Position numbers and translations under genes: made by a program
Part shown: positions 3,624 to 62,028 of the stretch, piece by piece
How positions within the stretch are numbered: position 1 is the stretch's first letter
Layout of the letters: each line of letters starts with the position of its first letter
NCBI GenBank assembly: GCA_041661665.1
Contig: JBAZTW010000003.1
Location: 7,088-71,087 of the forward strand
Length of the DNA: 64,000 bases
Direction: 5' to 3'
Source: Phycisphaerae bacterium
GTDB taxonomy: Bacteria; Planctomycetota; Phycisphaerae; Sedimentisphaerales; UBA12454
The notes under the pieces: generated by a model
Databases searched by the model: none
What the model was told of the DNA's origin: nothing
The model's input: the letters and a program-made list of their open reading frames with translations, nothing else

Positions 3624-3649
3624 CCGCGTGGGCTAAGAGCCCACCCTAC
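3624..3649 (-). repeat. repeat family R1 (GTAGGGTGGGCTCTTAGCCCACGCGG), reverse orientation
   Basis: Exact reverse complement of the 26-mer found at 16128, 54612, 56736 and 62003. Palindromic core is GTGGGCT/AGCCCAC. Confidence 0.85.
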
Positions 3650-11723: not shown

Positions 11724-12791
11724 TTACTCCAACAGCGTGTTATTCCTGGGATAGCTTCCAAGCACCGAAAGCTGCAAACAATGCTGCTTTACTTCTTCAA
11801 GACAGGCAAGGATTTTTTCTTCCCTGCGATGTCCCTGACAATCGACAAAGAAATAATACTCCCATTGCCTTTTCTTGCTCGGCCTGGACTCTATATTAGT
11901 AAGGTTCACTTCCTTTTTCTTAAAAACGTCCAGCACATCGGCCAACGCGCCCGCCTTGTGAGCGGTGCTGAACAATATCGATGTTTTGTCGTCGCCGCTG
12001 GGTTTTGCATCTTCCCTGCTGATAACCAAAAACCGCGTTACGTTGTTCGCGATATCTTCTATGTTCTCGCATACAATCTGCAATCCGTACAGTTCAGCGG
12101 CTATGTCCGAGCCGATTGCCGCGGCGAATTTTTCTTCCGCCGCCATTTGCGCCGCTTTGGCGGTAGAGGCGACAGGTATCGTATTGGCTTCCTTAAAAGT
12201 CGCGCCCAGCCATTTTCGGCACTGAACAAAAACCTCAGGCTTGGAATAAACCTTCTCAACTTCCTGAAGCTTGCAGTTAGCCAGCAGATTATGATGGACA
12301 GGCATATAGACTTCCGCGCAGATAAGCGCGGATGTATCAACAAAGGCATCAAGCGTTTCAACGACTTCGCCGCCGGTTGAGTTTTCTATCGGCACAACGC
12401 CGAGGTCGCAATGTCCCTTGCCGACCTCTTCAAATATCCCGCGAATATCAAGCACAGCTTCGTATTCAACGCTCTGACCGAATTTTCGTATTGCTGCGGT
12501 ATGAGAAAAGCTGCCTTTCGGCCCTAAAAATCCAATTCGCAAAGGTCTTTCAAGAAAGAACGAGCCGCTCATCATTTCCCGCCAAATCGCAGCAAGCGTT
12601 CTGTCGGGCAGGGGGCCTTTGTTCAGTTCGGCGATTCGAGCGAGAACTTTTTTTTCCCGGTCAGGCGCATAAATCGGACCATCGCCTTTAGCCTTGCCTA
12701 CTTCAACAACCACCTGCGCACGCTCGTTAAGCAGCTCTACGAGCCTTGCGTCAATCTGGTCTATTTTCTTTCGTAAGTCCTCGATATTCAT
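11724..12791 (-). CDS. pheA: bifunctional chorismate mutase / prephenate dehydratase
   Basis: N-terminal CM helix (LRKKIDQIDARLVELLNERA), a PDT domain, and a C-terminal ACT-like ESRPSKK. Confidence 0.9.
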   Translation of the reverse strand: MNIEDLRKKIDQIDARLVELLNERAQVVVEVGKAKGDGPIYAPDREKKVLARIAELNKGPLPDRTLAAIWREMMSGSFFLERPLRIGFLGPKGSFSHTAAIRKFGQSVEYEAVLDIRGIFEEVGKGHCDLGVVPIENSTGGEVVETLDAFVDTSALICAEVYMPVHHNLLANCKLQEVEKVYSKPEVFVQCRKWLGATFKEANTIPVASTAKAAQMAAEEKFAAAIGSDIAAELYGLQIVCENIEDIANNVTRFLVISREDAKPSGDDKTSILFSTAHKAGALADVLDVFKKKEVNLTNIESRPSKKRQWEYYFFVDCQGHRREEKILACLEEVKQHCLQLSVLGSYPRNNTLLE

Positions 12792-12984
12792 TGTTTTACT
12801 GCCAGAATATCCTAAAACCGGCTATACTTACCATAATTGTCGGCGGCAGTCAAATAAATTGGTAAATTACAGTTTGTTTGCGGATAAAAAGATGAGACAA
12901 TGTGTGATATGCTGATTTTCTATCGCCTTGGCCTTAAAAATCAGGATTGCTTTTATTCTGTTTTTGATTAGACTCAAAATCGAG

Positions 12985-13587
12985 ATGGTAAAACAAATGC
13001 CCAATATGTTGACTTTCGGCAGATTAGTTCTGTCGGTGATATTTTTAGTTATGGTCTATCTGTCGCCGAACAGGGCCGAGCCGCACTGGCCGAACTGGCT
13101 TTATCTCGATACGGCGTTTGCGATTTTTCTTGTCGCTGCTTTTACCGATTTAGCCGATGGCTATTTAGCTCGGAAATTCAACGCTGCCAGCAAATTCGGC
13201 AGAATTGTTGACCCTTTGGCTGATAAAGTGCTGATTTGCGGAGCATTTGTCGTTTTCGCAATTATCGGCGAACCGAAACTTTTCAATCTCAGCAAGCCGA
13301 CCCTTGCGATTATCCAGTGGGCTTTCGTTGGCGTTATAATTGCCAGAGAAGCGATGGTTACGATTATTCGGCAATGGAGCGAGTCACACGGCATAGTATT
13401 CCCTGCTACCTTGAGCGGCAAACTGAAAATGTTAGTGCAGGCCTTCGCCGTCGGCACGGTTATGGTCAAAATGGCTCACGTTCAAACCGCCGCCTGGGGC
13501 TACTGGTTCACATCTGCCGTTTATCTTATTACCATTTCAATTACCATTATCAGCGGCGTTTTGAGTTTTAAAAAGCTCAAAACATAG
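12985..13587 (+). CDS. pgsA: CDP-alcohol phosphatidyltransferase (PgsA-like)
   Basis: DLADGYLARKFNAASKFGRIVDPLADK motif. Start set at the MVKQMPN Met. Confidence 0.8.
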   Translation: MVKQMPNMLTFGRLVLSVIFLVMVYLSPNRAEPHWPNWLYLDTAFAIFLVAAFTDLADGYLARKFNAASKFGRIVDPLADKVLICGAFVVFAIIGEPKLFNLSKPTLAIIQWAFVGVIIAREAMVTIIRQWSESHGIVFPATLSGKLKMLVQAFAVGTVMVKMAHVQTAAWGYWFTSAVYLITISITIISGVLSFKKLKT

Positions 13588-13790
13588 ATGTCAGAAATCA
13601 GACATCAGACTTCCGCTAATCTCCGGCTTTTCAGAGGTCTTGATTAAAATTTTTAAAAAATTTACAAAAATTTGATACTTTTCTATTGAACTTCTCTTCG
13701 TACATAGATATACCGTCAATCTTATAGAGACTGCGCCGCCCAGCCGGCTTTGGCAGAGCCGCAGTCGGAATTTACTTTAAGGAACCCTGT

Positions 13791-15143
13791 ATGTATGAGT
13801 TGTGCAGCTTGTCTGCGAACATTGACCAGGCAGACGAACCTCCGCCTATTACCGCTCAGAATCCCACTGATTCTGGGCAGCTCTCTGACACAAGCCAAAG
13901 AAGCGTCAATTGTTTTGATGATTGGAAATGGCAAATAAGCAAGCGAATCCGGGATTTATCCGGCCTTTACGAGCTTTTCCCAAACCTCAAGAATAACGAT
14001 TTCATTCCCGCTGTAATTAAGAAGTATCCGATGGCTATTACGCCTTATTATGCTTCTTTAATACGCAAACTTGATATGTCTGACCCTGTTTTCGCGATGA
14101 GCATACCTCAAATCAGCGAACTTCAGGACCCGGCCTGTCTTAGCGAAGACCCGCTGGAAGAAAACGAAGATATGCCCGTGCCGGGACTTGTTCACCGTTA
14201 TCCCGACCGCGCGCTTCTGATTGCGACCACAACCTGCTCGATGTATTGCAGGCACTGTACAAGAAAAAGAGTCGCAGGCACAAGAGAAAGCACAATTTCA
14301 CCGCTGCGGCTTAAACAGGTATATGAATATCTGATTACCCACCCGGAAATTCACGATGTGATTATCTCCGGCGGCGACCCGCTGACGATGAATACCGATG
14401 CTATCGAGCGGATATTAGAGACTTTAAGAAGCATTCCAAGCGTCCAGATTATCCGAATCGGCACAAGAACGCCTGTCGTCCTTCCGCAGAGAATTACCGA
14501 TGAGCTGGTAAATATACTCAAAAAGTATCATCCGGTCTGGATAAATACCCACTTTAACCATCCCAACGAGCTTACCGCCCAAGCGGTCGAGGCTTGCGCG
14601 AAACTGGCTGATGCCGGAATACCGCTTGGCAACCAGTCTGTTCTGCTGCGAGGCATCAATGATACCCCGCAGATTTTCGAGCAGCTTTGCAGGGGCTTAG
14701 TTAGAATGAGAGTTAGACCTTACTATCTGTTCCAGTGCGACCTTGTTAAGGGTGTTGAGCATTTCAGAACGCCTTTGAGCAGAGGCATTGAGATTATGGA
14801 GTATCTCCGCGGCAGATTAAGCGGCATAGCGATTCCGACTTTTGTCGTCGATGCTCCCCACGGCGGCGGGAAAATCCCCGTTTTGCCGAATTATATCGTT
14901 TCCACGAGCCCGACACATACCGTATTGAGAAACTTTGAAGGTATGATGATTAACTATCCCGAACCATCTCTCGGCAGACCGGCGGAAATTCCGGTTGTTG
15001 AAACTCCCGCCCGGTCGGTATGGGATTTGGCAAGCGGAAGAAGCTCGGTCATCGTGCCGGAGAATACCAAACGCTATCAAAGGCGAAAAACAATCATCAG
15101 AAAGAAGAACGCTTCAATGATTCAGGAAGAGTTCAACTTCTAA
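13791..15143 (+). CDS. kamA: lysine 2,3-aminomutase family radical SAM enzyme (KamA-like)
   Basis: CSMYCRHCTRK (CxxxCxxC), ISGGDPL, PHGGGKIPV; 450 aa. Confidence 0.85.
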   Translation: MYELCSLSANIDQADEPPPITAQNPTDSGQLSDTSQRSVNCFDDWKWQISKRIRDLSGLYELFPNLKNNDFIPAVIKKYPMAITPYYASLIRKLDMSDPVFAMSIPQISELQDPACLSEDPLEENEDMPVPGLVHRYPDRALLIATTTCSMYCRHCTRKRVAGTRESTISPLRLKQVYEYLITHPEIHDVIISGGDPLTMNTDAIERILETLRSIPSVQIIRIGTRTPVVLPQRITDELVNILKKYHPVWINTHFNHPNELTAQAVEACAKLADAGIPLGNQSVLLRGINDTPQIFEQLCRGLVRMRVRPYYLFQCDLVKGVEHFRTPLSRGIEIMEYLRGRLSGIAIPTFVVDAPHGGGKIPVLPNYIVSTSPTHTVLRNFEGMMINYPEPSLGRPAEIPVVETPARSVWDLASGRSSVIVPENTKRYQRRKTIIRKKNASMIQEEFNF

Positions 15144-15144
15144 T

Positions 15145-16131
15145 ATGATTGTAGGTCTCACTTATGATTTAAGAAAAGATTATGAAAAACTCGGCTATAG
15201 CGAGCAGGCCGTAGCCGAGTTTGATTCTGAAGAAACCATTTCGTTTATCGAATCCACCATACAGAGTCTCGGCTATGAGACCGCCCGAATCGGCAATGTG
15301 TTTTCGCTGTGCGAAAAATTGGCCGCCGGCGAAAAATGGGATTTGGTTTTCAATATCGCCGAAGGCCTTACCGGCAGAAACAGAGAAGCACAGGTTCCCG
15401 CGATGCTGGAGGCGTATAACATACCTTATACAATGTCTGACCCATTAGTTTGCGCGCTTACGCTTGATAAAGCGATGACCAAACGCATTTTGCAGTCGGC
15501 AGGTCTTGCGACACCGAGATTTGCTGTTGTGGAATCTGCGAAAGACATTGCCGGCATTTCACTGCGGTATCCGCTTTTCGCAAAACCAATCGCCGAAGGC
15601 ACAGGCAAGGGCGTTGATGAAAAAAGCAAAATTGAAAACCCAAAACAGCTTAAAACCGTCTGCGAAAATCTGCTTGAGCAGTTCAGGCAGCCTGTTTTAG
15701 TTGAAGAATTTCTGCCAGGCCGTGAATTTACCACCGCGATACTCGGCACGGGCAGCGATGCCTATGTGCTTGGCACGATGGAAATCGTAATGAGAACGCA
15801 AACCGATGGAAATATCTATTCTTATGATGCCAAGGAACGATGCGAGCAGTTGATAGACTATGTGCGGTTTGATGAAAAGCCGCTGGTCGATAAAATCGCC
15901 GCTCTGGCTCTTGAGGCTTACAAGGTTTTGGAATGTCGGGATACCGGCAGGATTGATATCCGCTGCGATTCAGCGGGCGAACCGTGTTTTATCGAAATTA
16001 ACCCTCTGCCCGGTATGCATCCGACACATTCTGATTTGCCGATGATTGCAACAAGAGAAGGTATGAGTTATAAAAACCTGGTAAAAACAATAATAGATAG
16101 CGCTTTAAAAAGGGTCAAAAAGTTTTTGTAG
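15145..16131 (+). CDS. ATP-grasp ligase, D-Ala-D-Ala ligase-like (1 of 2)
   Basis: 328 aa; LDKAMTKRIL, YPLFAKP, FIEINPLPG. Starts 1 nt after the kamA stop. Confidence 0.75.
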   Translation: MIVGLTYDLRKDYEKLGYSEQAVAEFDSEETISFIESTIQSLGYETARIGNVFSLCEKLAAGEKWDLVFNIAEGLTGRNREAQVPAMLEAYNIPYTMSDPLVCALTLDKAMTKRILQSAGLATPRFAVVESAKDIAGISLRYPLFAKPIAEGTGKGVDEKSKIENPKQLKTVCENLLEQFRQPVLVEEFLPGREFTTAILGTGSDAYVLGTMEIVMRTQTDGNIYSYDAKERCEQLIDYVRFDEKPLVDKIAALALEAYKVLECRDTGRIDIRCDSAGEPCFIEINPLPGMHPTHSDLPMIATREGMSYKNLVKTIIDSALKRVKKFL

Positions 16132-16153
16132 GGTGGGCTCTTAGCCCACGCGG
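16128..16153 (+). repeat. repeat family R1 between the two ATP-grasp genes
   Basis: Exact 26-mer. Its GTAGGG supplies the TAG stop (16129-16131) of the upstream ORF. Confidence 0.85.
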
Positions 16154-16160
16154 CTGCTAT

Positions 16161-17144
16161 ATGAATATATTGATTATCCATAACGATTATGCTTCACACG
16201 CTTTCGCCGAAAGTAACGCCGGCCTGAAAGAGGAAGTGAACGCGGTTTGTAAAGCTCTGGTGGAACTTAAAATAAAATACACCATCAAAAGTATTAAGAA
16301 GATTGAGCAGCTTCCGAAAATTCTCGCAGCAAATAAGCAAAAAATTGTTTTTAATCTCGTTGAGGAATTGCCCGCGGATATTAAACACGCCTGTTTGGTG
16401 CCTGCGATTTGCCGCGGCTTCGGCAGAAAATTTACCGGCAGCGATACCCCCGCTCTGCTCCTCGCGCAAAACAAGGGACAGACAAAAGCGATTTTAAAAG
16501 CCGCAGGCGTTCCAGCTCCTGATGGCGCAATGGTTGAGGTTGGGCAGAAAATTTCCGTTAAAAATCTTACAAAAGGTTATTATATTGTCAAACCAGCTTT
16601 CTCCGATGCCAGCGAGGGCATAACCGCCGATTCTATCGTATCGCTCGGCAGCAAAAAAATGTCCGCCGTAATAGAAAAAATTCACAAGCAGTTTCGCCAG
16701 CCTGCGATCGTTGAGCAATTCATACCGAATCGGGAATTAAACGTTTCTGTTTTGCAGTGCGGCAGAAAAATAAAAGTTATGCCTATTGCGGAGATTGATT
16801 TCGGTGCATTTAAAAAAGGCAAACCAAAAATAGTTGATTACGCCGCCAAATGGTACGCCGATTCGTTTGAGTATAATAATACGCCTCGAATTTTGCCGGC
16901 AAAGCTGCCCGCCAAAGTTGCCGCGCTTGTCATGCAATATGCGATTGGCGCATTTAATGCTTTAGGCTGCAAAGATTATGTTCGAGTCGATTTTCGGTTA
17001 GACGAAAAAAATCATCCATTTGTTATTGAGGTAAATCCCAACCCTGATATTTCGCCTGATGCGGGTTTTGCCGCGGCGATTGAGGCAGGCGGAATAAACT
17101 ACAAAAAATTTGTTGAAACATTATTGAAAAATCCGGAATTATGA
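16161..17144 (+). CDS. ATP-grasp ligase, D-Ala-D-Ala ligase-like (2 of 2)
   Basis: 327 aa; NKGQTKAILKAAGVP, YIVKPAFSDAS, VIEVNPNPD. Confidence 0.75.
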   Translation: MNILIIHNDYASHAFAESNAGLKEEVNAVCKALVELKIKYTIKSIKKIEQLPKILAANKQKIVFNLVEELPADIKHACLVPAICRGFGRKFTGSDTPALLLAQNKGQTKAILKAAGVPAPDGAMVEVGQKISVKNLTKGYYIVKPAFSDASEGITADSIVSLGSKKMSAVIEKIHKQFRQPAIVEQFIPNRELNVSVLQCGRKIKVMPIAEIDFGAFKKGKPKIVDYAAKWYADSFEYNNTPRILPAKLPAKVAALVMQYAIGAFNALGCKDYVRVDFRLDEKNHPFVIEVNPNPDISPDAGFAAAIEAGGINYKKFVETLLKNPEL

Positions 17145-17626
17145 AAACTAATGAAATAACGATTCACCAGACCCAGCAAAAAGACAAGCCTGCCATTATG
17201 AGGATGCTGAAAGATACTAAATTCTTTCGTGATGGCGAAATTGTTATCGCCGAGGAAGTTCTTGACGATTCGCTTATTTGTGGAAAAGACGGAGAATATC
17301 GTTCATATTCCGCCGTCGAAAACAACGAGACAATCGGCTGGGTCTGTTTCGGCCCGACCGCCTGCACTATCGGCACGTTTGATGTTTTCTGGATTGTCGT
17401 GAACCCGAAATCGCAGGCCAAGGGCCTCGGCACAAAACTTATGGACTTCGCCACTGACCTTATAAAGAAGGATAATGGAAGGTTGATTGTCGTTGAAACA
17501 TCGGGAATGGCGAAATATCTGGCCACGCAAAAGTTTTATGAAAAGCTCGGCTACAAAAAAGAAGCTGTACTGAAAGACTTCTACACCAAAGGTGATGACA
17601 AAATCATTTATCTCAAAAAATGTTGA
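17141..17626 (+). CDS. GNAT family N-acetyltransferase
   Basis: 161 aa; acetyl-CoA motif NPKSQAKGLGTKL. ATGA overlap with the upstream gene. Confidence 0.8.
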   Translation: MKTNEITIHQTQQKDKPAIMRMLKDTKFFRDGEIVIAEEVLDDSLICGKDGEYRSYSAVENNETIGWVCFGPTACTIGTFDVFWIVVNPKSQAKGLGTKLMDFATDLIKKDNGRLIVVETSGMAKYLATQKFYEKLGYKKEAVLKDFYTKGDDKIIYLKKC

Positions 17627-17766
17627 GAGGTATTTCTTTTGTCGATTAATTTTCATGCTATTTTACCACATAAATTCGTATATTAAAAAACAGTTTTTTC
17701 ATTGAGTGTTAGTAGAAAAGATATATAATCAGAAGTTGTTTAATCCATTTTACAGGAGATATTGAT

Positions 17767-18501
17767 ATGAAGAAACTATTGCAGGTGTTTATTCCTATTC
17801 TTTGTGTGCCATTCCTTTGTGGTTTTCTGTTCGACTCGAAACCCAAAACCTCAAAAAAACTTATAGAGGCTCGTGTTCTTGATGTAACCGCTACTGGCGA
17901 GGTCGTTATAGACGCAAACAATAGCATGGTGAAGACTAAAGTAATGTTAGATATTTTCAGGACAAATGGGGAATTAACAGCCAAAAGTGATATAGAAATC
18001 CCCGTAGCCAGAATTATAATTACTCAAACAACTCCGACTTATAGCACAGGGACTATCGCCAGTAAAATTGACGGTAGTAAAGCCCAAATCAGGGATATTT
18101 CCAGAGGTATGCTTTGCAGAGAAACTACGAAACAAACTCTTAAGGCCGAAAAGAAATTTTACAAAAAAACTTTAAAGAGCCAAGGTAAATTAATGAGGTT
18201 AAAAAAAGTATCAAAATATGAGGCAAAGCTAAATAGTTGGATAGGAGTTGATGTTAATAATTTAATTGCAAGCTGGGGATATCCTGAATCATCCTTTGTT
18301 GCACCCAATGGCAACAAAGTATATGTTTATTCTCAAAGTTCAAGTTATACCAAGCCAATGGTCACCAATATCAACCCATATACGCATAGTGCTATTACAT
18401 ATGGTGGGAAAACAGTCGAACATTGGTGTAATACTTATATAGAGGCTGACAATACCGGAAGAATTATCAAGTGTACATGGAAAGGAAATCATTGTAAGTG
18501 A
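17767..18501 (+). CDS. hypothetical secreted protein
   Basis: Signal-like N-terminus MKKLLQVFIPILCVPFLCG. AT-rich codon usage. No family recognised. Confidence 0.5.
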   Translation: MKKLLQVFIPILCVPFLCGFLFDSKPKTSKKLIEARVLDVTATGEVVIDANNSMVKTKVMLDIFRTNGELTAKSDIEIPVARIIITQTTPTYSTGTIASKIDGSKAQIRDISRGMLCRETTKQTLKAEKKFYKKTLKSQGKLMRLKKVSKYEAKLNSWIGVDVNNLIASWGYPESSFVAPNGNKVYVYSQSSSYTKPMVTNINPYTHSAITYGGKTVEHWCNTYIEADNTGRIIKCTWKGNHCK

Positions 18502-18561
18502 CATGATTATAGTGATCTGAATTTTTGTTGGCAGAAAAAGTTTAAAAAAAGATGGGTAGCG

Positions 18562-19245
18562 TTGTCTAAGAAAACAGAGCAAAAACATAAAGGTATTTGT
18601 GTACTATGTGGGAAAGAAGAGTATTTGACCAGAGAACACGTTCCCCCAAAAAATTTATTCTCTAAACCTCGTCCGAAGAATACAATTACAGCCTGGACTT
18701 GTAAACCATGCAATGCCAGCTATTCGCAAGATGAAGAATACTTCCGAATATATATTGCTGCGGGAGCTTCGCCAGATTCAGACTGCGGTCGTCTCTGGAA
18801 GGAAAAGGTAGAAAATTCAACATTTTCACGTAGCCCAGCATTACGCCAAAAACTTTCTGATGGCATGGATGTTATTCAGCAATATCACAAATTAAATCCG
18901 CTTAAGGATTTTGATGGCAAACCAATTCCCGACGAACTAATCCCATATGCACTTCCTTTAGAATCAGATCGTATTTGCAGGGTTATAAAAAAAATCATTC
19001 GGTGTTTGTACTTTAAACACTTCAAATTTGTACTTTCACCGGAGATAGAGATATCCATTAGCACTGAACCTTTAACTGAAGTGGAGGTGGAAAAAATTGT
19101 TATTGAGCATAAAGGTTTTGTAGGTAATAAAGTAGATAATTTATTTATTTATTGGTTTGACCAACAGGAAAAAGATGGGAGTATTGACTGGATACTTTTG
19201 TTTCAAGGTGGTTTTAAATATTTTCGTGCAACCATTAAAATGTGA
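18562..19245 (+). CDS. hypothetical protein with HNH-like CxxC...EH...CxxCN motif
   Basis: CVLCGKEEYLTREHVPPKNLF...CKPCNASYS resembles a beta-beta-alpha-Me finger; the rest is unrecognised. Confidence 0.45.
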   Translation: MSKKTEQKHKGICVLCGKEEYLTREHVPPKNLFSKPRPKNTITAWTCKPCNASYSQDEEYFRIYIAAGASPDSDCGRLWKEKVENSTFSRSPALRQKLSDGMDVIQQYHKLNPLKDFDGKPIPDELIPYALPLESDRICRVIKKIIRCLYFKHFKFVLSPEIEISISTEPLTEVEVEKIVIEHKGFVGNKVDNLFIYWFDQQEKDGSIDWILLFQGGFKYFRATIKM

Positions 19246-19446
19246 ATAAATAATGGCCATTTGGGCTGTTAAAAAAATACGCCGAAGGCCGATTCCATAA
19301 CTCAAAACTAAGAATTTAAAATTAAAAATTTCTTCTTTCCTCATTCAACGTTGGGCGTTAGATGTTGAATGTTCGACGTTCTTCTGGGTTTTACGTTCTT
19401 TGTACTATATTCTTTTTTTCTGATAACCGATAACTGAATTGCTGTT

Positions 19447-21306
19447 TTATCCTGTTGTTTTTCTTGCTGCTCTGCGTCTGTCTTCTTCTTTCAGGAATTT
19501 TTTGCGAATACGAATTGAATTTGGACAAATTTCGACATACTCATCTTCCTGAATATATTCCATCGCAATCTCAAGGCTCATTATGCGGGCGGGTCTTACT
19601 TTAGCGGCATCATCCTTGCCGGAGGAACGCATATTTGTAAGCTGTTTTAATTTGACAACATTTACGGGGATGTCGATTTCCTTACAGTGTTCACCGACGA
19701 CCTGGCCATCATAAACCCTGTCGCCCGGCGAAACAAAGAATATGCCCCTGTCATACAGCGCGTCTAAAGCGTAAGCTGTAACCTGGCCGGTTGTGGTAGC
19801 AACCATAACGCCTGCCTTGCGCTGCGGGATACTGCCTCGCATCAGGTCATATTTTTCAAACGAATGGTGCATAATCGCTCTGCCCTGCGTAGCGTTGAGC
19901 ATTCTTGCGTGCAGACCGAACAGGCCGCGCGACGGAATAATAAATTCCATATGCACAAAATCATTCGCGCCGCTTTTGGCGTCTATTTTTAATATCTCGC
20001 TTCGGCGGTCGCCAAGCAGACTCATCACAGAACCCTGACAATCAGTGGGACAGTCAACGGCAAGCAATTCTATAGGCTCATGTTTTTGGCCGTCCACAAT
20101 TTTTAAAATTACACTTGGTTTTCCAACACAAAGCTCAAAACCTTCACGGCGCATATTTTCGAGAAGTATGCCAAGGTGCATCAGTCCTCTGCCGGAAACA
20201 TTAAACTCTTCCGGCGTCTGACCTGGTGAAACCCGCAAAGCAACATTAGACTGAAGCTCTTTATCAAGTCTTATGCCGATTTGTCTGCTGGTGAGGTATT
20301 TGCCGTCTAAGCCTGCAAATGGGCCATCGTTGACACGGAAAGTCATCGACATCGTCGGCTCATCAACAGCGATAATCGAAAGCTGCGTCGGATTATCCGG
20401 GCAGGCGATTGTATTGCCGATGTCAACAGGGTCAAGCCCCGACACCGCGCAGATATCGCCGGCAAGAACTTCAGTAACGCGCCTTCTGCTCAGGCCGTCA
20501 AACTGATGAATATGCATAACCTTCTGTTGGGTATGTTCGCCGTTTGAATCAATAACTGTAACGCGCTGGTCTTCAGCGATTTGACCTGCAAAAACTTTGC
20601 CGATGGCGATTCTGCCGACATAATCCGAATACTCCAGACTTGTAACAAGCATCTGAAGCGGTGCGTCCGGGTCAACCTTTGGAGCCGGAATGTTTTTAAT
20701 AATAGTATCGAACACAATTTTCAGATTGTCGGTTTTCTTGTCCGGGTCATCCGAGGCCCAGCCTTCTCTGCCCGATGCGTAAATACAGGGAAAATCAAGA
20801 GCCTTGTCATCGGCACCGAGCTGCACAAGCAAATCGAAAACTTCATTTACAACCTCGTGCGGCCGACTATTCGGACGGTCAACCTTATTTATCACAACTA
20901 TCGGCCTAAGCTTATGTTCCATCGCCTTGGTAAGCACAAATCTTGTCTGCGGCATAGGCCCTTCAAACGCGTCAACCAAAAGCATAACCCCGTCAGCCAT
21001 TTTCAGAACACGTTCCACTTCGCCGCCGAAATCAGCGTGGCCGGGCGTGTCAATAATGTTAATTTTGTAATCGTCACCGTTGTCATCAGTGTAGTTGACG
21101 GCGCAATTTTTGCTCAAAATCGTTATGCCTCGTTCACGCTCAAGCGGGTTGGAGTCCATAATGAGGTTGTTTTCGCCACCGGCGAGTTTATCAAGGTCTT
21201 CAGTGCGAAACTGCCCCGATTGATACAATAATCTGTCAACCAAAGTCGTCTTGCCGTGGTCAACGTGGGCAATTATCGCTACATTACGAATATAATTTGA
21301 ATACAT
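19447..21306 (-). CDS. typA: translational GTPase TypA/BipA
   Basis: AHVDHGKTTL, DTPGHADF, NKVDR. Start set at the MYSNYIRNVAII Met. Confidence 0.92.
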   Translation of the reverse strand: MYSNYIRNVAIIAHVDHGKTTLVDRLLYQSGQFRTEDLDKLAGGENNLIMDSNPLERERGITILSKNCAVNYTDDNGDDYKINIIDTPGHADFGGEVERVLKMADGVMLLVDAFEGPMPQTRFVLTKAMEHKLRPIVVINKVDRPNSRPHEVVNEVFDLLVQLGADDKALDFPCIYASGREGWASDDPDKKTDNLKIVFDTIIKNIPAPKVDPDAPLQMLVTSLEYSDYVGRIAIGKVFAGQIAEDQRVTVIDSNGEHTQQKVMHIHQFDGLSRRRVTEVLAGDICAVSGLDPVDIGNTIACPDNPTQLSIIAVDEPTMSMTFRVNDGPFAGLDGKYLTSRQIGIRLDKELQSNVALRVSPGQTPEEFNVSGRGLMHLGILLENMRREGFELCVGKPSVILKIVDGQKHEPIELLAVDCPTDCQGSVMSLLGDRRSEILKIDAKSGANDFVHMEFIIPSRGLFGLHARMLNATQGRAIMHHSFEKYDLMRGSIPQRKAGVMVATTTGQVTAYALDALYDRGIFFVSPGDRVYDGQVVGEHCKEIDIPVNVVKLKQLTNMRSSGKDDAAKVRPARIMSLEIAMEYIQEDEYVEICPNSIRIRKKFLKEEDRRRAARKTTG

Positions 21307-21705: not shown

Positions 21706-22259
21706 CCTTCCAGAAGCAAAAATCTTTTTCTTCCCTCCCTGCGAGTAGACAATATCCTTGATGAGTTTTTATGTGCAAAGGATATACCATCAGCCATTGA
21801 CAAAGTTTGACCTCTCAGTTTTGTGCCAAAAGAGGGGTTTTGAAGTTGCCAAAGGCGGGTTTTTTGTGATGAGAGATATTGCAAATTGCGCAAGTTTTGC
21901 CGCAATGTTGCAAAAAAAAGACACTCGATAGCACGAAAAGACGAAAAACTCAGATATATGGATATGAGGTAAAAGCCAATGTTGATTAAAATAAACATTA
22001 TATTGCGGATGTACAATGTTAAGTGTTTTATTGGTTGCAATTCGAAATAGATTTTGATAAAATAGCGAAGTTATGTTGGCTGCGTAGTCCAGCGTTTAAT
22101 AAATATTGGAAATCCCGATTTAAGAGACTACTAACGCACAACTTGATGCTCCTCGGGCGTGCCTGTTGAGGTTTTCAACAGCGCGTAGAGGCTCTCGGTA
22201 AAAGAGCCAAGACAGCTTGCCGAGCTGTTTTCTTAATTCAGCGATAAGGAGTGAGCGTG

Positions 22260-24542
22260 ATGAAGAAATGCAATCAGATATTGTGTATCTCTGTTTTTTT
22301 ACTGCTGATACTAAGCACATCAAATGCCGGTCAATTTCCTTCAGAGCCTAATGAACCGACAGTTTCCCAGCCTTGTAACGGAGAAGGCAAAGATATATAC
22401 TGCGGCCATTTGAAATCCACTCTCGCCGCACTTATGGCTCAGGGTTCCCAGCAGGCGAGGGACATTTACCGCGAATCGAATTCTTATACCGACATTCTTA
22501 ACTGTTCCTTAAACCTTGATATAAATCCCACTACGGAAATTGTCAGCGGCACAAACGCACTCACAGTGAAAAGTCTTATTAACGGTCTGGCTACATTCAC
22601 TCTCGACCTTCGCGACAATATGACCGTCGATAGCGTTACAGGCGATGTCGCTTCCTATACGCATCCGGGACACACTATCGAAATCACTCTCAACAGGCCC
22701 TATGATATAAATGAAATCTTTACTGTAACCGTTACCTATCACGGCATACCGCAAAACCTCGGTTTTTCTTCTTTCGACTGGACCACACACAACGGCAATG
22801 CAATTTTCGCAACGCTCAGTGAACCCTGGTTCGCACACACATGGTGGCCCTGCAAGGATGTTCTCGATGATAAATTTACAATGGATATGTGGGTTACAGT
22901 GCCGAGCTGGATGATTGTTACTTCAAACGGCCTTTTGCAGGGCACAGATTCAGTCGCAGGCGGGAAAACACGCTACCGCTGGCACGAATCGTATCCTATC
23001 GCCACCTACCTTGTTTCTTTGACCGGCACAAATTATGTTCACTGGACTTATAATTACAATCACGCCGCGGGTACAATGCCTGTGGAAATGTACGCTTATC
23101 CCGAAAGCGAATCCTACGTCCGCGGCATAACAGCCGACTTAGTAACGCAAATACAAACCTTCAGCAGCGCTTATGGCGAATATCCTTTCATCAACGAAAA
23201 ATACGGCATAACCCAGTTCCAGTGGAGCGGCGGAATGGAAAACCAGACCCTCACAAGTCAGGGCGCCTATGCCTCATGGCTCAACGCACACGAACTTTCA
23301 CATCAGTGGTGGGGCGATATGATTACCTGCAAAACCTGGCACGATATCTGGCTCAACGAAGGTTTTGCCACATATTCGGAAGCCGTATATGAAGAAAAAA
23401 GACCGGGCGGAAGTTATTCCTTGTATTTCAGCAGAATGCAGTCTCGAAGGCCGGGCTCTTACGGCGGAACCGTCTATGTTTATGACATCTCCGATTTCGG
23501 TGCGGTTTTTGATGGAACTACCGTCTATAACAAGGCCGCCTGGGTGCTTCATATGCTTCGGCACGTTGTCGGCGACGCTAATTTTTTTGACATTCTCGCT
23601 ACATACAGGTCTGCATACGAGGGCGACAGCGCGACGACCGAAGATTTCAGAGCTTCAGCGGAAAGCGTTTATGGCGGCGATTTACAGTGGTTCTTCGATG
23701 AATGGGTTTATAACGGCGGCGCTCCTTATTACAGATTCGGCTGGGAGCAGCAGCAAATCGGTTCGCAAAACTGGATGAGGTTATATATAAATCAATACCA
23801 GCAGGCCTCCTACGGCTATCCAAATTTCAAAATGCCAATCGACATAACCATTAATTCAGCTTCGACAACCCCCGTTTGGAATAACGCAGTCTCCCAGTGG
23901 TACCTGATCAAAACAGCCTCTCCCGTAACATCGGTGCAGTTCGATAAGAACACATGGATATTGCGAGGCACCACATCATCCGTTTCCTATGTAAAAGGCC
24001 CCGCAAAAATTATCGATACCGCGCCGCTGCCCAACCAGACTATTCACTCGGCAGTCCTTGACCATATCACCATACAGTTCAGCGAACCAATTACATACAG
24101 CAACTCCAATATAGCGGTAACCGGAAGCCTCACCGGGGCACAAAGTTTCTCAAGCGCCTTTTCTATGAGCAATTATATGCTTACTCTGACATTCCCACAG
24201 CCCCTAATGCAGGGGCAAACTTATACCGTTACAGTTACCGATGGCATTTTGACGCCGAGTTCAGGGTATGCAATCGATGGCGAACTATCATCCGGCTCGC
24301 CGTTATTCCCGTCAGGAGACGGATTACCGGGCGGAAACGCCGTATTTTCTTTTTACCTCGGTTATGGCGCAGACCTCTCCGGCGATAACAAGGTCAATTT
24401 CGATGACTTCGCTTTATTCGCCGCTCAATGGCAAAAAACAAATTGCGGCGCCTGCGGCGGCGCCGACCTCTCCGGCGACGGTAATGTTAATTTCTCCGAT
24501 TTAAAAATCTTTTCAGCCTCCTGGCTCGTAGAACCGCAGTAA
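22260..24542 (+). CDS. secreted M1 family metallopeptidase with C-terminal dockerin-like repeats
   Basis: WSGGMENQT, HELSHQWWGD and WLNEGFATY motifs, plus a signal peptide. Tail has ADLSGDNKVNFDDF / ADLSGDGNVNFSDL. ATG follows an AAGGAG site. Confidence 0.85.
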   Translation: MKKCNQILCISVFLLLILSTSNAGQFPSEPNEPTVSQPCNGEGKDIYCGHLKSTLAALMAQGSQQARDIYRESNSYTDILNCSLNLDINPTTEIVSGTNALTVKSLINGLATFTLDLRDNMTVDSVTGDVASYTHPGHTIEITLNRPYDINEIFTVTVTYHGIPQNLGFSSFDWTTHNGNAIFATLSEPWFAHTWWPCKDVLDDKFTMDMWVTVPSWMIVTSNGLLQGTDSVAGGKTRYRWHESYPIATYLVSLTGTNYVHWTYNYNHAAGTMPVEMYAYPESESYVRGITADLVTQIQTFSSAYGEYPFINEKYGITQFQWSGGMENQTLTSQGAYASWLNAHELSHQWWGDMITCKTWHDIWLNEGFATYSEAVYEEKRPGGSYSLYFSRMQSRRPGSYGGTVYVYDISDFGAVFDGTTVYNKAAWVLHMLRHVVGDANFFDILATYRSAYEGDSATTEDFRASAESVYGGDLQWFFDEWVYNGGAPYYRFGWEQQQIGSQNWMRLYINQYQQASYGYPNFKMPIDITINSASTTPVWNNAVSQWYLIKTASPVTSVQFDKNTWILRGTTSSVSYVKGPAKIIDTAPLPNQTIHSAVLDHITIQFSEPITYSNSNIAVTGSLTGAQSFSSAFSMSNYMLTLTFPQPLMQGQTYTVTVTDGILTPSSGYAIDGELSSGSPLFPSGDGLPGGNAVFSFYLGYGADLSGDNKVNFDDFALFAAQWQKTNCGACGGADLSGDGNVNFSDLKIFSASWLVEPQ

Positions 24543-37832: not shown

Positions 37833-38029
37833 AATTTTAGTGCGGGGTTGACAAAGAAAATTAAAAATTAAATATCAAAAATAAAAATGACCCCGATGAG
37901 ATAGTCGAAGCGACATCTCACAGGGCAGGCAAAGCAAAATTTAAAAATAGGTGGCTGTTCCTATTTTTACTATTTTTAATTTTTACGTATTTTTTCAACA
38001 TCGAATTGTGTTAAGCAAGGAACTATGAG

Positions 38030-39148
38030 ATGGCAATACCTTTAATCGCATTTGATGAAACAGGAAATACAGGACAAAATTTACTTGACCCTGACCAGCC
38101 AGTGTTTGTTTTAGCATCTGTTAATTTAAGCTATGCAGAAACACAACGTGCATTAGAAATCTTAAATCCCAAAAAAGGACAGGAAGTCCATTTTGCAAGT
38201 TTCAGTAAAAGTTGTTCTGGTAAGGCACGGATCTTGCAATTTTGCCAATCAGATTTAATTTCATCAGATAAAATAAATATAAGTGTAATCCATAAGGGCT
38301 ACATGGTTGTCACAAAGGTCGTTGATTTGCTTATAGAGAACTTATGTTACGAAACTGGATTTGACCTGTATAAAAATGGTGCTAATATTGGAATGGCAAA
38401 TATTTTTTATATGTGCATTCCGACTTTTTGTGGACAAGATAACTTTAAAAGTTTTTTGGATAAATTTGTTTGCATGATACGAAATAAAGATGCCAGTTCC
38501 ATTACAGAGTTCTATAAAAGTGTTAATAATCTGAGCTTAACATGTAATAGTAAGCTCTTCAAAGAAATGATTGAGCTTATATTAGCTACCCAGTGTATTA
38601 TTGATGAAGTAATTACTAGGTGTAGTGTTGTTGATTTAGATCCAGCTGTTCCTGCGTTCGTGAATGATTGTATTGCATGGGGAGAACAATTGGGCTGCGA
38701 ATTTAACATAGTTCATGACCAATCTAAACCAATTGAGCATCAACAAGAAATACTTACCTGTTTAATGGCCAAGGATGAACCAGAAATTATAGTTGGATAT
38801 GACCAAAGAAAAATGAAATACCCTTTAAAGGTGCATGGCTTTAAGTTGTGCGATTCTAATGTTGTGCCTCAAATACAAATAGCAGATATTATAAGTGGCA
38901 CATATGGCTATGTGCTAAAAGGTCGCTTAGGAAAAAAAGTTGACAATAACTTTTTTGAAACTATAGAGAAAAGTAAGTTGTTAGGTTTGCCATGTCATCC
39001 ACTTTGGCCGTCAGATGAAGTAACACCAGAAGACTTAGGGACAATAGGACCAGATGCAGGTGATCCAAACCTTTATGTTGGAAATTTAATTGACAGACAA
39101 AAAATGAAGAGGATGCAAAAAAGTAAAGAATCTCGAACTACGCTATAG
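38030..39148 (+). CDS. DUF3800-like protein
   Basis: N-terminal IAFDETGNTG and C-terminal CDSNVVPQIQIADIISG match the DUF3800 hallmarks as I remember them. AT-rich codons. Confidence 0.65.
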   Translation: MAIPLIAFDETGNTGQNLLDPDQPVFVLASVNLSYAETQRALEILNPKKGQEVHFASFSKSCSGKARILQFCQSDLISSDKINISVIHKGYMVVTKVVDLLIENLCYETGFDLYKNGANIGMANIFYMCIPTFCGQDNFKSFLDKFVCMIRNKDASSITEFYKSVNNLSLTCNSKLFKEMIELILATQCIIDEVITRCSVVDLDPAVPAFVNDCIAWGEQLGCEFNIVHDQSKPIEHQQEILTCLMAKDEPEIIVGYDQRKMKYPLKVHGFKLCDSNVVPQIQIADIISGTYGYVLKGRLGKKVDNNFFETIEKSKLLGLPCHPLWPSDEVTPEDLGTIGPDAGDPNLYVGNLIDRQKMKRMQKSKESRTTL

Positions 39149-39172
39149 ACAGATAAAAGTGCAGAAATAAAA

Positions 39173-40312
39173 ATGACAAAAATGATTAATTTGCTTAAGG
39201 ATTATTTAAAGACAATTGATTGGAGTTTGTTTAGACGCGGTCCAAAAGGGCCAGGAACATTGCTTATTGTTTTATCTATAGATAGTTTTGCCCATAGCCA
39301 GGGGTTTGAGTACGAGAAAGAAGTCTTTCTTGGCCTAACAAGAAAAACAAACAATCATAAAGGATATATTGATATAATCATTAAAAGCCCCGATGGAATT
39401 AAGTACGCAATAGAAATTGACAGCAGTAATAAAAAATGGTCGCTTGAAAAACTTCTCCATGCGCATAGTATAGGATATGTGCCGATTTGGGTTCGTTGGC
39501 GTGTAAAAATAAATATTAACATTCCAGCAATCATAAATTTGATAGATTTAACAGAACGTGAGACTTTTTCCACCATGGATTTGGAGCGAAAAGATATGAC
39601 CAATAAACTAAAACATGTTGAAATTTACACTGATGGTGCTTGTCGTCCCAACCCAGGTATTGGCGGCTATGGCTTAATATTGATATATTGTGATACACGT
39701 AAAGAAATAAGTGGTGGTTTTAATCATACGACAAACAATAGAATGGAGATGTATGCTGCTATTAAGGGATTGGAGATGCTCAAAGAAGCTTGTAAAGTTA
39801 CTTTGTATAGTGACTCAAAATACTTGGTCAATTCCATGGCCAAAGGAAGAGTTAAGCTTTGGCGAGATAATAATTGGCAGCTTCGTAAACATAAACAGAA
39901 AGAAATTGCCAATATAGATTTATGGACAAGATTACTGGCTTTATGTGACATTCACGAAGTCGAATTCAATTGGGTAAAAGGACATGATGGAAATCCTCTA
40001 AATGAAAGATGTGACATTCTTTCCACAATAGCTTGGGAACAAAAAGATTTGCCTGCTGATGAAGGTTACAAGAAGTCCAATGCAATTAAAGTCAATCACG
40101 ACAATCAACCATATAAAAACTATTCAGCTTCTGATGTTAAAATAACTTATGAGGGTCAACCATGCAGAAAGTGCTCAACTCCTGTGGTTAAGAAATTCAC
40201 ACGTAAAAATAGGGATAAAAGTCGTAGAAAGTATTGGTTTGAGTATTATTTTCATTGTCCAAATTGTCAGACTATGTATATGACTGATGAAGCAAAACGG
40301 TATATGCCTTAA
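39173..40312 (+). CDS. fusion protein: N-terminal PD-(D/E)xK-like domain + RNase HI + C-terminal Zn ribbon
   Basis: Full RNase HI core VEIYTDGACRPNPG...NNRMEMYAA...LYSDSKYLV...WVKGHDGNPLNERCD. N-terminus has GYIDIII...YAIEIDSSNKK. C-terminus has CRKC...CPNC. Confidence 0.8.
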   Translation: MTKMINLLKDYLKTIDWSLFRRGPKGPGTLLIVLSIDSFAHSQGFEYEKEVFLGLTRKTNNHKGYIDIIIKSPDGIKYAIEIDSSNKKWSLEKLLHAHSIGYVPIWVRWRVKININIPAIINLIDLTERETFSTMDLERKDMTNKLKHVEIYTDGACRPNPGIGGYGLILIYCDTRKEISGGFNHTTNNRMEMYAAIKGLEMLKEACKVTLYSDSKYLVNSMAKGRVKLWRDNNWQLRKHKQKEIANIDLWTRLLALCDIHEVEFNWVKGHDGNPLNERCDILSTIAWEQKDLPADEGYKKSNAIKVNHDNQPYKNYSASDVKITYEGQPCRKCSTPVVKKFTRKNRDKSRRKYWFEYYFHCPNCQTMYMTDEAKRYMP

Positions 40313-54611: not shown

Positions 54612-54637
54612 GTAGGGTGGGCTCTTAGCCCACGCGG
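54612..54637 (+). repeat. repeat family R1
   Basis: Exact 26-mer. Confidence 0.85.
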
Positions 54638-56735: not shown

Positions 56736-56761
56736 GTAGGGTGGGCTCTTAGCCCACGCGG
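56736..56761 (+). repeat. repeat family R1
   Basis: Exact 26-mer. Confidence 0.85.
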
Positions 56762-59382: not shown

Positions 59383-60639
59383 CTAAATTATATTTATCGG
59401 AATGGCGTATATATTTTTGCCCATAGGCAGTAACTCTTTGCACAGACAGAGGACTCCGCCGCCGTCTATTTGCCCTAATCGACTAACTGTTGAAAATGCG
59501 CTTATCCACTTTTTTTTCGGGCTTGCGGATTTTTTAACTTCCAGCGGATAAAACTTTTGATTTTGCGTTATAAGGAAATCCATTTCTACGCCGTCTTTGT
59601 CGCGGTAGTAATAAATGGAAGGCATTTTGCACTGATGCCACCAGCTTTTGAGTATTTCAGCGAGAGCGTAAGTTTCAAGTATTGCCCCCGACATTGCTCC
59701 CACAGATAATGCTTTGGATGTTGTCCATTCTGTCAGATACGAGCACAACCCTGTATCCAGGAAGTATAATTTAGGCCTTTTGACTAATCTTTTTGTCAAA
59801 TTACTGTGATAAGGCTGTAATAAAAACACCTGAAAACTTGCCTGTAATATGGATAGCCAGTTTTTTGCGGTTTTGACTGAAATATCCGCATCTCGTGCCA
59901 GCTCAGTGAGGTTTAAAATTTGTGCGGTTCTGGCGGCACATGCCCTTAGAAATGTCAGAAAAGCGCCTTCATCGCCAACCTGTGCAAGATCGCGGACATC
60001 TCTTTCGAGATAAGTTCTAAGATAAGAACTGTAAAATACTTCCCAGTCTTTCACTTTGCTGGTTACCAGAGCGGGAAAACTGCCCTGCCAGATTTCATCA
60101 TAAATATTTTTTGATTCCACATTTTTAATTTTTGTTAGTCTGTTTTCGAGAAGTTCCCGCATCGGCAAAAAAGGCAGCTCTTCAATATTTTCCCGATGTC
60201 GTTCGTTCCCGGAAAAACCAAGCATATTTATAATAGCCACTCTGCCTGCAAGAGTTTCGGTAATGCCGCGCATCATTTGAAACTGCTGAGAACCTGTAAG
60301 CCAAAATTGTCCTGCTTTGTGATTGGAATCAACTTCCATTTTGATGTATGACAACAAACCTGGCGCGTATTGTATTTCATCAATTAAAATAGGCGGCTGG
60401 TATCTTCTAAAAAACGTAGCAGGGTCTTCTTTTGCCAGCAGCCGTTTATCAGGGTCATCAAGAGTTACATAGGTACGCCCCTGTTCCGAAATATGTTTAA
60501 GAAACGTGGTTTTTCCTATCTGCCTGGGGCCGGTCAGCAGCAGCACAGGAAATTGTTCTGATATTTCAAGCCATCTATTATAGAGTGTTCTTTTATAATA
60601 CATAATATATTTATCGTCTATTATGGACTTGGAGTCCAT
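59383..60639 (-). CDS. AAA+ ATPase with DUF4143-like C-terminal domain
   Basis: Walker A LLLTGPRQIGKTT; Walker B ILIDEIQ; 418 aa. Confidence 0.8.
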   Translation of the reverse strand: MDSKSIIDDKYIMYYKRTLYNRWLEISEQFPVLLLTGPRQIGKTTFLKHISEQGRTYVTLDDPDKRLLAKEDPATFFRRYQPPILIDEIQYAPGLLSYIKMEVDSNHKAGQFWLTGSQQFQMMRGITETLAGRVAIINMLGFSGNERHRENIEELPFLPMRELLENRLTKIKNVESKNIYDEIWQGSFPALVTSKVKDWEVFYSSYLRTYLERDVRDLAQVGDEGAFLTFLRACAARTAQILNLTELARDADISVKTAKNWLSILQASFQVFLLQPYHSNLTKRLVKRPKLYFLDTGLCSYLTEWTTSKALSVGAMSGAILETYALAEILKSWWHQCKMPSIYYYRDKDGVEMDFLITQNQKFYPLEVKKSASPKKKWISAFSTVSRLGQIDGGGVLCLCKELLPMGKNIYAIPINII

Positions 60640-60829
60640 AATAGACGGTAAAATTATTTATGTCAATATAATTTCATAATGTTATTTTGTTCTCAAAAAC
60701 AGCCATAACACCTTTGTATTCAATATGTTATGCATTGTCAATGGTTTCTAATATGAAAAGACCGTAGTGTTGCCAAAAATCATAAATCCAGAAATAAAAA
60801 TCGTGGGTTAAAAATTTTTCTATTTTTTT

Positions 60830-60844
60830 GTTTGCATTGCAAAC
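60830..60844. promoter_or_regulatory. 7-1-7 perfect inverted repeat GTTTGCA-T-TGCAAAC (candidate operator)
   Basis: Read directly. Lies ~60 nt upstream of the ATG at 60906 and overlaps a TTGCAT...TATTAT promoter-like stretch. Confidence 0.35.
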
Positions 60845-60905
60845 AAGTTTGTGTTATTATATTATATATCAGGGCAAGAAATTAGAATTTAAAAGGAGCA
60901 AAATT

Positions 60906-61932: not shown

Positions 61933-61965
61933 TAAATGTTAAGGCAATTTTAATAATTGCAAAAC

Positions 61966-61993
61966 CAGAGCCTGGAGCGAAAGCGACAGGTGT
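61966..61993 (+). repeat. repeat family R4
   Basis: CAGAGCCTGGAGCGAAAGCGACAGGTGT. Confidence 0.8.
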
Positions 61994-62002
61994 AAAAGTT
62001 TC

Positions 62003-62028
62003 GTAGGGTGGGCTCTTAGCCCACGCGG
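62003..62028 (+). repeat. repeat family R1
   Basis: Exact 26-mer. Confidence 0.85.

Follow-up and report, generated by a model that had tools for sequence, protein, structure and literature searches.

What does a lysine 2,3-aminomutase gene make when it stands in one tight string with two genes for ATP-grasp proteins that resemble D-alanine–D-alanine ligase (Ddl) and a fourth gene for a GNAT acetyltransferase? The question is raised by four open reading frames (ORFs) at 13791–17626 of a 64,000-nt stretch of DNA from an anaerobic planctomycete of the Phycisphaerae (contig JBAZTW010000003.1, positions 7,088 to 71,087; this whole stretch is called the window below), which a sequence-only reading had taken for an operon that builds an acetylated, beta-amino-acid-containing peptide or solute. 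We found that the module is real, widespread, uncharacterised and distinct from the ablAB pair of acetyl-beta-lysine synthesis, and we infer its product and physiological role from the evidence below. The checks proposed with the sequence-only reading, as far as they were run, all spoke for it. On balance we favour one operon for a pathway in the cytoplasm that starts from lysine and ends in an amide containing beta-lysine. The four genes, with the names used for their products, are as follows.

13791–15143, + strand: ORF1, KamA-type protein of 450 residues (Pfam Radical_SAM and LAM_C)
15145–16131, + strand: ORF2, ATP-grasp ligase AG1, 328 residues (Dala_Dala_lig_C / ATP-grasp_3)
16161–17144, + strand: ORF3, ATP-grasp ligase AG2, 327 residues (Dala_Dala_lig_C / ATP-grasp_3)
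17141–17626, + strand: ORF4, GNAT of 161 residues (Pfam Acetyltransf_7, _1 and _10)

The aminomutase, the two ligases and the acetyltransferase

We first give the arrangement of the string, which in the ORF list and in the DNA itself was as claimed, four tightly packed same-strand ORFs with three short junctions. ORF1 ends with a TAA at 15143, and after a single base the ATG of ORF2 begins at 15145; the TAG of ORF2 (16129–16131) is followed by a 29-nt spacer and the ATG of ORF3 at 16161; ORF3 and ORF4 share an ATGA overlap (17141–17144). The motifs quoted for the four products (CSMYCRHCTRK, ISGGDPL, FIEINPLPG, VIEVNPNPD and QAKGLGTKL) were all present in the translations, and the proteins are letter-identical to NCBI MFA6185864-67, which carry generic names only from the PGAP annotation pipeline.

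ORF1 aligned with Clostridium subterminale KamA (PDB 2A5H) at E = 2.4e-135 and keeps the equivalents of C125/C129/C132, R134, D293, D330 and the pyridoxal phosphate (PLP) lysine K337. D293 and D330, which bind the epsilon-ammonium group of lysine in 2A5H, correspond to D317 and D354 of ORF1, and the equivalents of the Fe-S cysteines, R134, D293, D330 and the PLP lysine are kept in all 67 cluster-linked KamA homologues. In glutamate 2,3-aminomutases the two lysine-binding Asp residues are replaced (Lys/Asn). The glutamate type had been raised as a possibility to be settled by these two positions; because both Asp residues are kept, the substrate of ORF1 is predicted to be lysine and not glutamate. 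The family scores of ORF1 are consistent with this assignment: it passes the KamA-family model TIGR00238 (325 bits against a cut-off of 199), its best NCBIfam model is AblA TIGR03820 at 511 bits, narrowly under the cut-off of 525.4, and it fails the glutamate 2,3-aminomutase model (429 bits against 650) and EpmB TIGR03821 (249 against 369) and lies far under the cut-off of the Arg-type aminomutase model. The KamA of one cluster member from Syntrophaceae (L072) reached 530 bits on the AblA model. By its residues and scores, ORF1 is thus a lysine-type 2,3-aminomutase, predicted to make beta-lysine.

The two ATP-grasp proteins have the Ddl fold and lie outside the Ddl family. AG1 and AG2 matched Pfam Dala_Dala_lig_C at E = 1.7e-33 and 5e-24, respectively, and both failed the two Ddl models, with scores on NF002378 (cut-off 243) of 179 for AG1 and 109 for AG2, and on TIGR01205 (cut-off 245.65) of 150 and 103. 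They had been called paralogous-looking, and the comparison bears this out: they share 29.7% identity (E = 5e-34), and E. coli DdlB, which aligned at 93 bits with AG1 and 39 bits with AG2, is more distant from each than they are from one another; AG2 is the more divergent of the pair. AlphaFold2 models of the two proteins had mean confidence (pLDDT) values of 88 (AG1) and 90 (AG2), and the top 50 Foldseek PDB matches listed for AG1 and for AG2 were all Ddl/Van-type, with template-modelling (TM) scores of ~0.7–0.8 and 14–28% identity. The Foldseek search against the PDB, having given Ddl/Van structures only, did not narrow the specificity of either protein. The likeness to Ddl/Van enzymes lies in the three-domain ATP-grasp fold (TM ~0.75–0.8 to the best DdlA/DdlB) and in the equivalents of K215, R255, D257, E270 and N272 common to AG1 and AG2, whereas the differences are the low identity (19–27%), the kamA/GNAT context in place of mur/dcw genes, and the residues replaced in the substrate sites.

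For these residues E. coli DdlB was the numbering reference, and the sequence used for it had the expected residue at every position checked. The catalytic set is kept in both proteins (K230, R269, D271, E284 and N286 in AG1; K230, R275, D277, E290 and N292 in AG2), and across 61 AG1 and 65 AG2 sequences the equivalents of DdlB K97, K144, E180, E187, K215, R255, D257, E270 and N272 vary hardly or not at all. The positions around the D-Ala sites have changed. At DdlB Y216, AG1 has E231 (E/D in 60 of the 61 sequences) and at L282 it has D297 (D in 47, C in 13), with S281 and G276 kept; AG2 has W231 at Y216 and D296 at G276, each in 65/65 sequences, together with A301 at S281 and G302 at L282. 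This mapping of Y216, G276, S281 and L282 agrees across phmmer, MAFFT and hmmalign. AG1 and AG2 are hence predicted to be catalytically intact ATP-grasp ligases of a non-Ddl kind. An ordinary Ddl paralogue acting on peptidoglycan precursors, one of the outcomes that would have spoken against the sequence-only reading, is not what was found: the scores fall below the cut-offs, the D-Ala residues are replaced and there is no mur/dcw context. No canonical ddl was found in the 64-kb window besides AG1 and AG2.

ORF4 has acetyl-CoA motif A (Q/R-x-x-G-x-G/A) as QAKGLGTKL and belongs to the GNAT superfamily. Its best NCBIfam match is rimI TIGR01575, which it fails (45.7 bits against 86.4), and the families that matched at E ≤ 1e-3 were two rimI, two AAC(6') and one generic GNAT; there was no match to an AblB model at this threshold. 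Judged from these matches ORF4 is a RimI-like GNAT, with the AblB type excluded, and the proposed separation of the operon from an ablAB pair is supported. Its nearest solved structure is PDB 2R7H (E = 2.7e-34 over 147 residues, orthologue-level), which we take to be a protein of Desulfovibrio G20, and a homologue 99% identical to 2R7H lies in a Desulfovibrionaceae cluster of the order sigma54 enhancer-binding protein (EBP), KamA, AG1, AG2 and GNAT. The name of 2R7H, 'putative D-alanine N-acetyltransferase of GNAT family', is a structural-genomics label and does not come from experiment; we suspect that its 'D-alanine' derives from the annotation of the neighbouring Ddl-like genes.

Conservation, gene order and fusions

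A scan of an AG2 alignment across one genome per species confirmed at least 584 AG2-family loci, of which the locus survey covers the best 80. All four functions occurred together in 45 of the 57 loci with adequate flank. The carriers belong to Phycisphaerae, Kiritimatiellia, Lentisphaerae, Verrucomicrobiota, Desulfovibrionaceae, Bacteroidota, Ignavibacteria, Acidobacteria and Aminicenantes; in addition, a Bathyarchaeota metagenome-assembled genome (MAG; L077) has KamA, AG1 and AG2, with GNAT absent. AG1 relatives in Phycisphaerae lie in the same gene string with unrelated flanks, and the flanking genes also vary between carrier lineages. Three gene orders were seen, with optional genes in parentheses.

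Type I, (TetR)-KamA-(HDAC)-AG1-AG2-GNAT: Planctomycetota–Verrucomicrobiota–Chlamydiota (PVC) phyla, and MAGs labelled Chloroflexota, Myxococcota and Eisenbacteria
Type II, AG1-AG2-GNAT-KamA: Bacteroidota, Ignavibacteria, Acidobacteria, Aminicenantes and Chlorobiaceae-labelled genomes
Desulfovibrionaceae, sigma54 activator-KamA-AG1-AG2-GNAT, with or without the HDAC protein: D. mangrovi, O. indonesiensis and a G20-like strain among others

Moreover, the genes are repeatedly fused. AG2 is fused to the GNAT in 39/80 surveyed loci, and AG1::AG2 fusions of 640–790 residues (P0405, P0411, P0428 and P0463) occur in the contexts KamA-[AG1::AG2]-GNAT and KamA-[AG1::AG2]-HDAC. A putative KamA::AG1 fusion is a single ORF of 825 residues in a Victivallales MAG (L062, 2353–4830), with Radical_SAM, LAM_C and an AG1-type ATP-grasp domain. 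Every adjacent pair, KamA/AG1, AG1/AG2 and AG2/GNAT, is thus joined by some fusion, and the four functions are genetically coupled. The sequence-only reading was exposed to the chance that the ATP-grasp genes do not travel with kamA in relatives; the 45 loci in many phyla, together with the fusions, show that they do.

Few other genes recur beside the module. The recurrent extra genes are TetR (25 loci), the sigma54 activator (Desulfovibrionaceae), a GNAT-like::HDAC protein and a DksA-like gene only; they point to regulation and deacetylation and not to export or to a target. The GNAT-like::HDAC protein was found in 12 loci plus L088, L090 and L091, at varied positions, and is absent from this window; it has ~580 residues, with an N-terminal GNAT-like part of ~260 residues and a C-terminal part of the HDAC/acetylpolyamine-amidohydrolase type, and is ~50% identical between PVC and Desulfovibrio. 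Its mapped copies are as follows.

L001, 5268–7004: GNAT-like::HDAC protein
L088, 8629–10386: GNAT-like::HDAC protein
L090, 6250–8004: GNAT-like::HDAC protein
L091, 2541–3929: GNAT-like::HDAC protein

In the surveyed loci no conserved transporter stands beside the module, and an exporter adjoins it in 1/80 loci, a MatE gene (L057, 7536–8909) that overlaps the end of AG2::GNAT in a Verrucomicrobiota MAG. No asnO-like gene was found among the recurrent neighbours. A carrier or scaffold peptide encoded in cis, of the LysW kind or like a peptide that is ribosomally synthesised and then modified post-translationally (RiPP), was considered and rejected, as the only 'conserved' small ORF is an antisense shadow of the TetR gene. 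A functional meaning of the type II neighbours RecG, DnaG and GpsA was likewise discarded, these being lineage synteny only.

A predicted beta-lysine amide pathway and its alternatives

Since the module is conserved and repeatedly fused across phyla, a beta-lysine-containing amide is the product to be expected. In the proposed pathway, KamA would turn L-lysine into beta-lysine (3,6-diaminohexanoate), and AG1 and AG2 would each activate a carboxylate as acyl phosphate and couple an amine to it, forming two amide bonds together. AG1 probably takes beta-lysine directly, because of the KamA::AG1 fusion, because the carboxylate-binding Ser is kept and because the acidic E231/D297 would suit a cationic amino acid; our preferred guess is a condensation of the beta-lysyl-(beta-)lysine type, like that of Ddl joining two D-Ala. 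In pyrrolysine synthesis a lysine is rearranged by PylB, a radical S-adenosylmethionine (SAM) lysine mutase, after which the ATP-grasp protein PylC attaches this rearranged form to N-epsilon of another lysine. This offers by analogy a precedent for a beta-lysyl-lysine type product, although PylB lies outside the KamA family, the module is without PylD and the pyl cluster is without a GNAT; a search of PDB sequences with AG1 and AG2 at E ≤ 1e-3 did not bring up PylC. AG2 would then add another amide bond, probably at an amine that has no carboxylate next to it, such as an epsilon-amino group, because the Ser/Leu pair has been lost and an invariant Asp and Trp have been gained.

The GNAT would acetylate a free amine of substrate or product. 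Relatives that have the HDAC protein probably take the acetyl group off again, which may reflect protection of the epsilon-amine during carboxyl activation, or turnover. Because the window has no HDAC gene, its end product is probably N-acetylated, and its most likely form would be an N-acetylated di- or tri-amide of beta-lysine. A GNAT and an ATP-grasp ligase also work together in Ngg/AsnO, which make N-acetylglutaminylglutamine amide (NAGGN), and in NAT8L and RIMKLA, which make N-acetyl-aspartyl-glutamate. These systems, likened here by description, would share the GNAT plus ATP-grasp logic, which can lie in a single polypeptide as in AG2::GNAT; they differ in that their ATP-grasp proteins are RimK/cyanophycin-like, their substrates are alpha-amino acids, and they have no aminomutase and no second ligase. 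The present system would amount to small-amide biosynthesis of the ATP-grasp/GNAT kind, joined to the formation of beta-lysine.

The roles that we favour for the product, which are the least certain part of the proposal, are an intracellular protectant, a compatible solute or a polyamine-like compound of anaerobes. A compatible solute would be the natural analogy to ablAB and NAGGN. For a broader proposal we would call the chances about even: that the product belongs to an unknown class of cytoplasmic amides, an N-acetyl-capped beta-lysyl di- or oligo-peptide or conjugate that serves as solute, protectant or polyamine surrogate in anaerobes of at least ten phyla, that AG1 is the first dedicated beta-lysine:amino-acid ATP-grasp ligase, and that GNAT and HDAC protect and then deprotect.

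Several observations weigh against the beta-lysine amide pathway as drawn here. The 45/57 loci come from a survey seeded with AG2, which gives how often KamA stands beside AG2 and not the converse. About one fifth of the well-flanked loci are without KamA and/or AG1 nearby; AG2 and GNAT (separate or fused) occur with neither within ~6 kb at L013, L014, L051, L055, L059, L070 and L071, with YchF, a Na+/H+ exchanger-EIIA fusion and a xanthine-dehydrogenase-like operon among the genes around them. Because of these loci AG2 + GNAT can stand alone, and the two may also act as a pair on their own or together with genes in other places. The grouping of the four genes into one operon follows from spacing and conservation, and the donor- and acceptor-site residues of AG1 and AG2 are assigned through homology to DdlB. 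Part of this mapping, at the N-terminal residues E15 and H63 of the first D-Ala site, is unstable: DdlB H63 falls on E73 in two alignments and on T76 in the third, in which E15 is unaligned; the invariant A24-E25 of AG1 and the near-invariant E17 and invariant S18 of AG2 may be the counterparts of DdlB E15/H63. Finally, many carrier MAGs seem, from their record titles, to come from freshwater lakes, anoxic lakes, fens, groundwater and digesters, and an oligomerised osmolyte has a lower osmotic yield. Carriers from freshwater and anoxic lakes do not favour a strictly salt-linked function, and because of them and of the osmotic inefficiency of oligomers a stress-protectant or polyamine-like role is equally possible.

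Among the alternatives, the one that survives best, although we consider it unlikely, is that the module modifies a protein or peptide, with the ATP-grasp enzymes ligating beta-lysine to a protein encoded elsewhere, such as elongation factor P (EF-P) or a ribosomal protein, much as EpmA/EpmB or RimK do, and the GNAT acetylating it. The GNAT is most like RimI and N-terminal acetyltransferases, AG1 and AG2 have weak TTL, RimK and ATPgrasp_ST matches, a DksA/YteA-like gene lies 3' of the cluster in some Anaerohalosphaeraceae, type II clusters lie among the housekeeping genes recG, dnaG and gpsA, and EF-P modification is unestablished for most phyla. The known EpmA/EpmB system shares with the module a KamA-family aminomutase that supplies beta-lysine and an ATP-dependent ligation after it. 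However, the KamA of the window is of the AblA/C. subterminale type with LAM_C and scores 249 bits where EpmB needs 369, the ligases are ATP-grasp and not LysRS-like (lysyl-tRNA synthetase-like) proteins, and no efp lies nearby. Moreover, there is no conserved candidate target gene or small ORF nearby, local regulation by TetR and sigma54-EBP proteins is usual for operons that respond to metabolites, both AG1 and AG2 have all three domains of a Ddl-like enzyme and have as nearest relatives enzymes that join free amino acids, and the distribution is patchy, like that of an accessory trait.

A small probability goes to a secreted specialised metabolite, for which the module would be the core of a pathway to a beta-lysine antibiotic-like or signalling compound. 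Streptothricin and negamycin contain beta-lysine, acetylation of the streptothricin beta-lysine by GNATs serves for self-resistance, and TetR regulators are common in such clusters. The predicted negamycin cluster reportedly encodes beta-lysine formation and belongs to a set of clusters with ATP-grasp-superfamily genes (bioRxiv 10.1101/2025.05.27.656397). The MatE efflux gene at L057 would fit an exported product, but it is the one adjacent exporter in 80 loci, other tailoring, resistance, nonribosomal peptide synthetase (NRPS) or polyketide synthase (PKS) genes are not recurrent, and the module is compact, order-conserved and lineage-wide in free-living anaerobes, with an AG2-family relative in at least 584 species genomes, unlike the usual sporadic biosynthetic clusters.

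A modification of the envelope, in which a precursor of peptidoglycan or lipid would receive beta-lysine or a beta-lysyl peptide, is very improbable. AG1 and AG2 do have the Ddl-family fold, ATP-grasp side-chain ligases that act on UDP-MurNAc-peptides exist, cross-bridges of Enterococcus are built by an ATP-grasp D-aspartate ligase, and a pgsA-like phospholipid gene lies directly 5' of the operon in the window. The pgsA neighbour, however, is not conserved in relatives, Mur, flippase and membrane components are not recurrent, all four proteins look soluble and TetR control is local; moreover, one carrier is the Bathyarchaeota MAG L077, and archaea have no murein.

The least probable alternative, plain N-epsilon-acetyl-beta-lysine synthesis by KamA and GNAT as an ablAB analogue with the ligases as bystander Ddl paralogues, has in its favour that AblA is the top-scoring model for KamA, that KamA and a GNAT formally suffice and that JGI and some NCBI records label the ligases 'D-alanine--D-alanine ligase', but it is largely refuted by ligases that occur in fusions with KamA, with one another and with the GNAT, fall under the Ddl cut-offs, have replaced D-Ala-site residues family-wide and lack mur/dcw genes nearby, and by an ORF4 without an AblB match. 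With ablAB (methanogens, green sulfur bacteria and Pelobacter) the module shares an AblA-like aminomutase with D293 and D330, a GNAT, a cytoplasmic setting and compactness; it differs by the two co-conserved, fused ATP-grasp ligases, by a GNAT that is a RimI-like protein of 161 residues, by a KamA just short of the AblA cut-off (511 against 525.4) and, in relatives, by the added HDAC-type deacetylase.

Returning to the beta-lysine amide pathway, beta-lysine is to our knowledge known in four settings only: methanogens use it, acetylated, as an osmolyte, it occurs as an intermediate of fermentation, it modifies EF-P, and it is built into a few actinomycete antibiotics. The pathway, if true, would be a new branch of lysine metabolism that probably leads to a new small molecule, with AG2-family relatives in at least 584 species genomes, sulfate reducers among them, and it would correct the widespread annotation of the ligases as 'D-alanine--D-alanine ligase' and of the GNAT as 'D-alanine N-acetyltransferase' or 'RimI'. 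The cultured carriers are Desulfovibrio mangrovi, D. psychrotolerans, Oceanidesulfovibrio indonesiensis, a G20-like Oleidesulfovibrio and possibly Victivallis vadensis; for the GNAT orthologue there is a crystal structure (2R7H), and strain G20 has a barcoded transposon library. The sequence-only reading knew of no characterised pathway with this four-gene composition, and we found none either: PGAP names are generic, and the gene set is undescribed in NCBIfam, in PGAP and in the literature searched, outside which lies the amidoligase survey of Iyer et al. 2009. NCBIfam has no model specific to the module, on which the papers about Desulfovibrio LysX and the sigma54 regulon are silent.

The upstream region, the spacer element and the rest of the window

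Two features lie directly 5' of the operon.

12928–13587: pgsA-like gene, 5' neighbour of the kamA operon (family search)
13588..13790, + strand: intergenic region and presumed promoter site, with the pgsA-like gene 5' of it

The promoter scan called no strong sigma70-like site within 13588..13790; promoter-like sites numbered 13 against 7.9 ± 2.7 in shuffled controls, and terminator-like sites 5 against 5.8 ± 2.4, neither a clear excess. No convincing internal terminator was found in the operon by the terminator scan, and no Rfam match was found in 12500–19500 at E ≤ 1, which leaves a riboswitch or leader RNA upstream of kamA unsupported. A regulator gene is absent 5' of kamA in the window, at the position that TetR holds in 25 related loci.

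The spacer between AG1 and AG2 had been described as mostly filled by a repeat (R1), and this repeat is real. It resembles repetitive extragenic palindromic (REP) elements, and the perfect 7-bp hairpin GTGGGCT-CTT-AGCCCAC lies inside the 29-nt spacer; the 17-nt palindrome has 5 exact copies in the window against 0 expected. The stop codon of AG1 is the TAG of a 26-nt element that forms the invariant core in the alignment of copies.

16128..16153, + strand: REP-like 26-nt element GTAGGGTGGGCTCTTAGCCCACGCGG, hairpin in the AG1–AG2 spacer
3628–3644, − strand: palindrome copy
16133–16149, + strand: palindrome copy
54617–54633, + strand: palindrome copy
56741–56757, + strand: palindrome copy
62008–62024, + strand: palindrome copy

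On the 3' side of the operon, an ORF of 244 residues (17767–18501) has no Pfam or NCBIfam match and an ORF of 227 residues (18562–19245) has a sub-threshold HNH_5 match (23.1 bits against a cut-off of 27.5). The G+C content is low (0.39) at 18–20 kb, and these two ORFs may be a small foreign insert. Further G+C minima were seen at 38001–40000 (0.348) and 60001–62000 (0.380), compared with ~0.46 elsewhere, and positive GC skew is sustained from ~42 to 52 kb. PADLOC gave zero anti-phage defence matches. An ORF of 763 residues at 22251–24542 has an HExxH...E gluzincin motif (HELSHQWWG) and, by eye, two dockerin-like DLSGDxxVNFxD repeats at its C-terminus.

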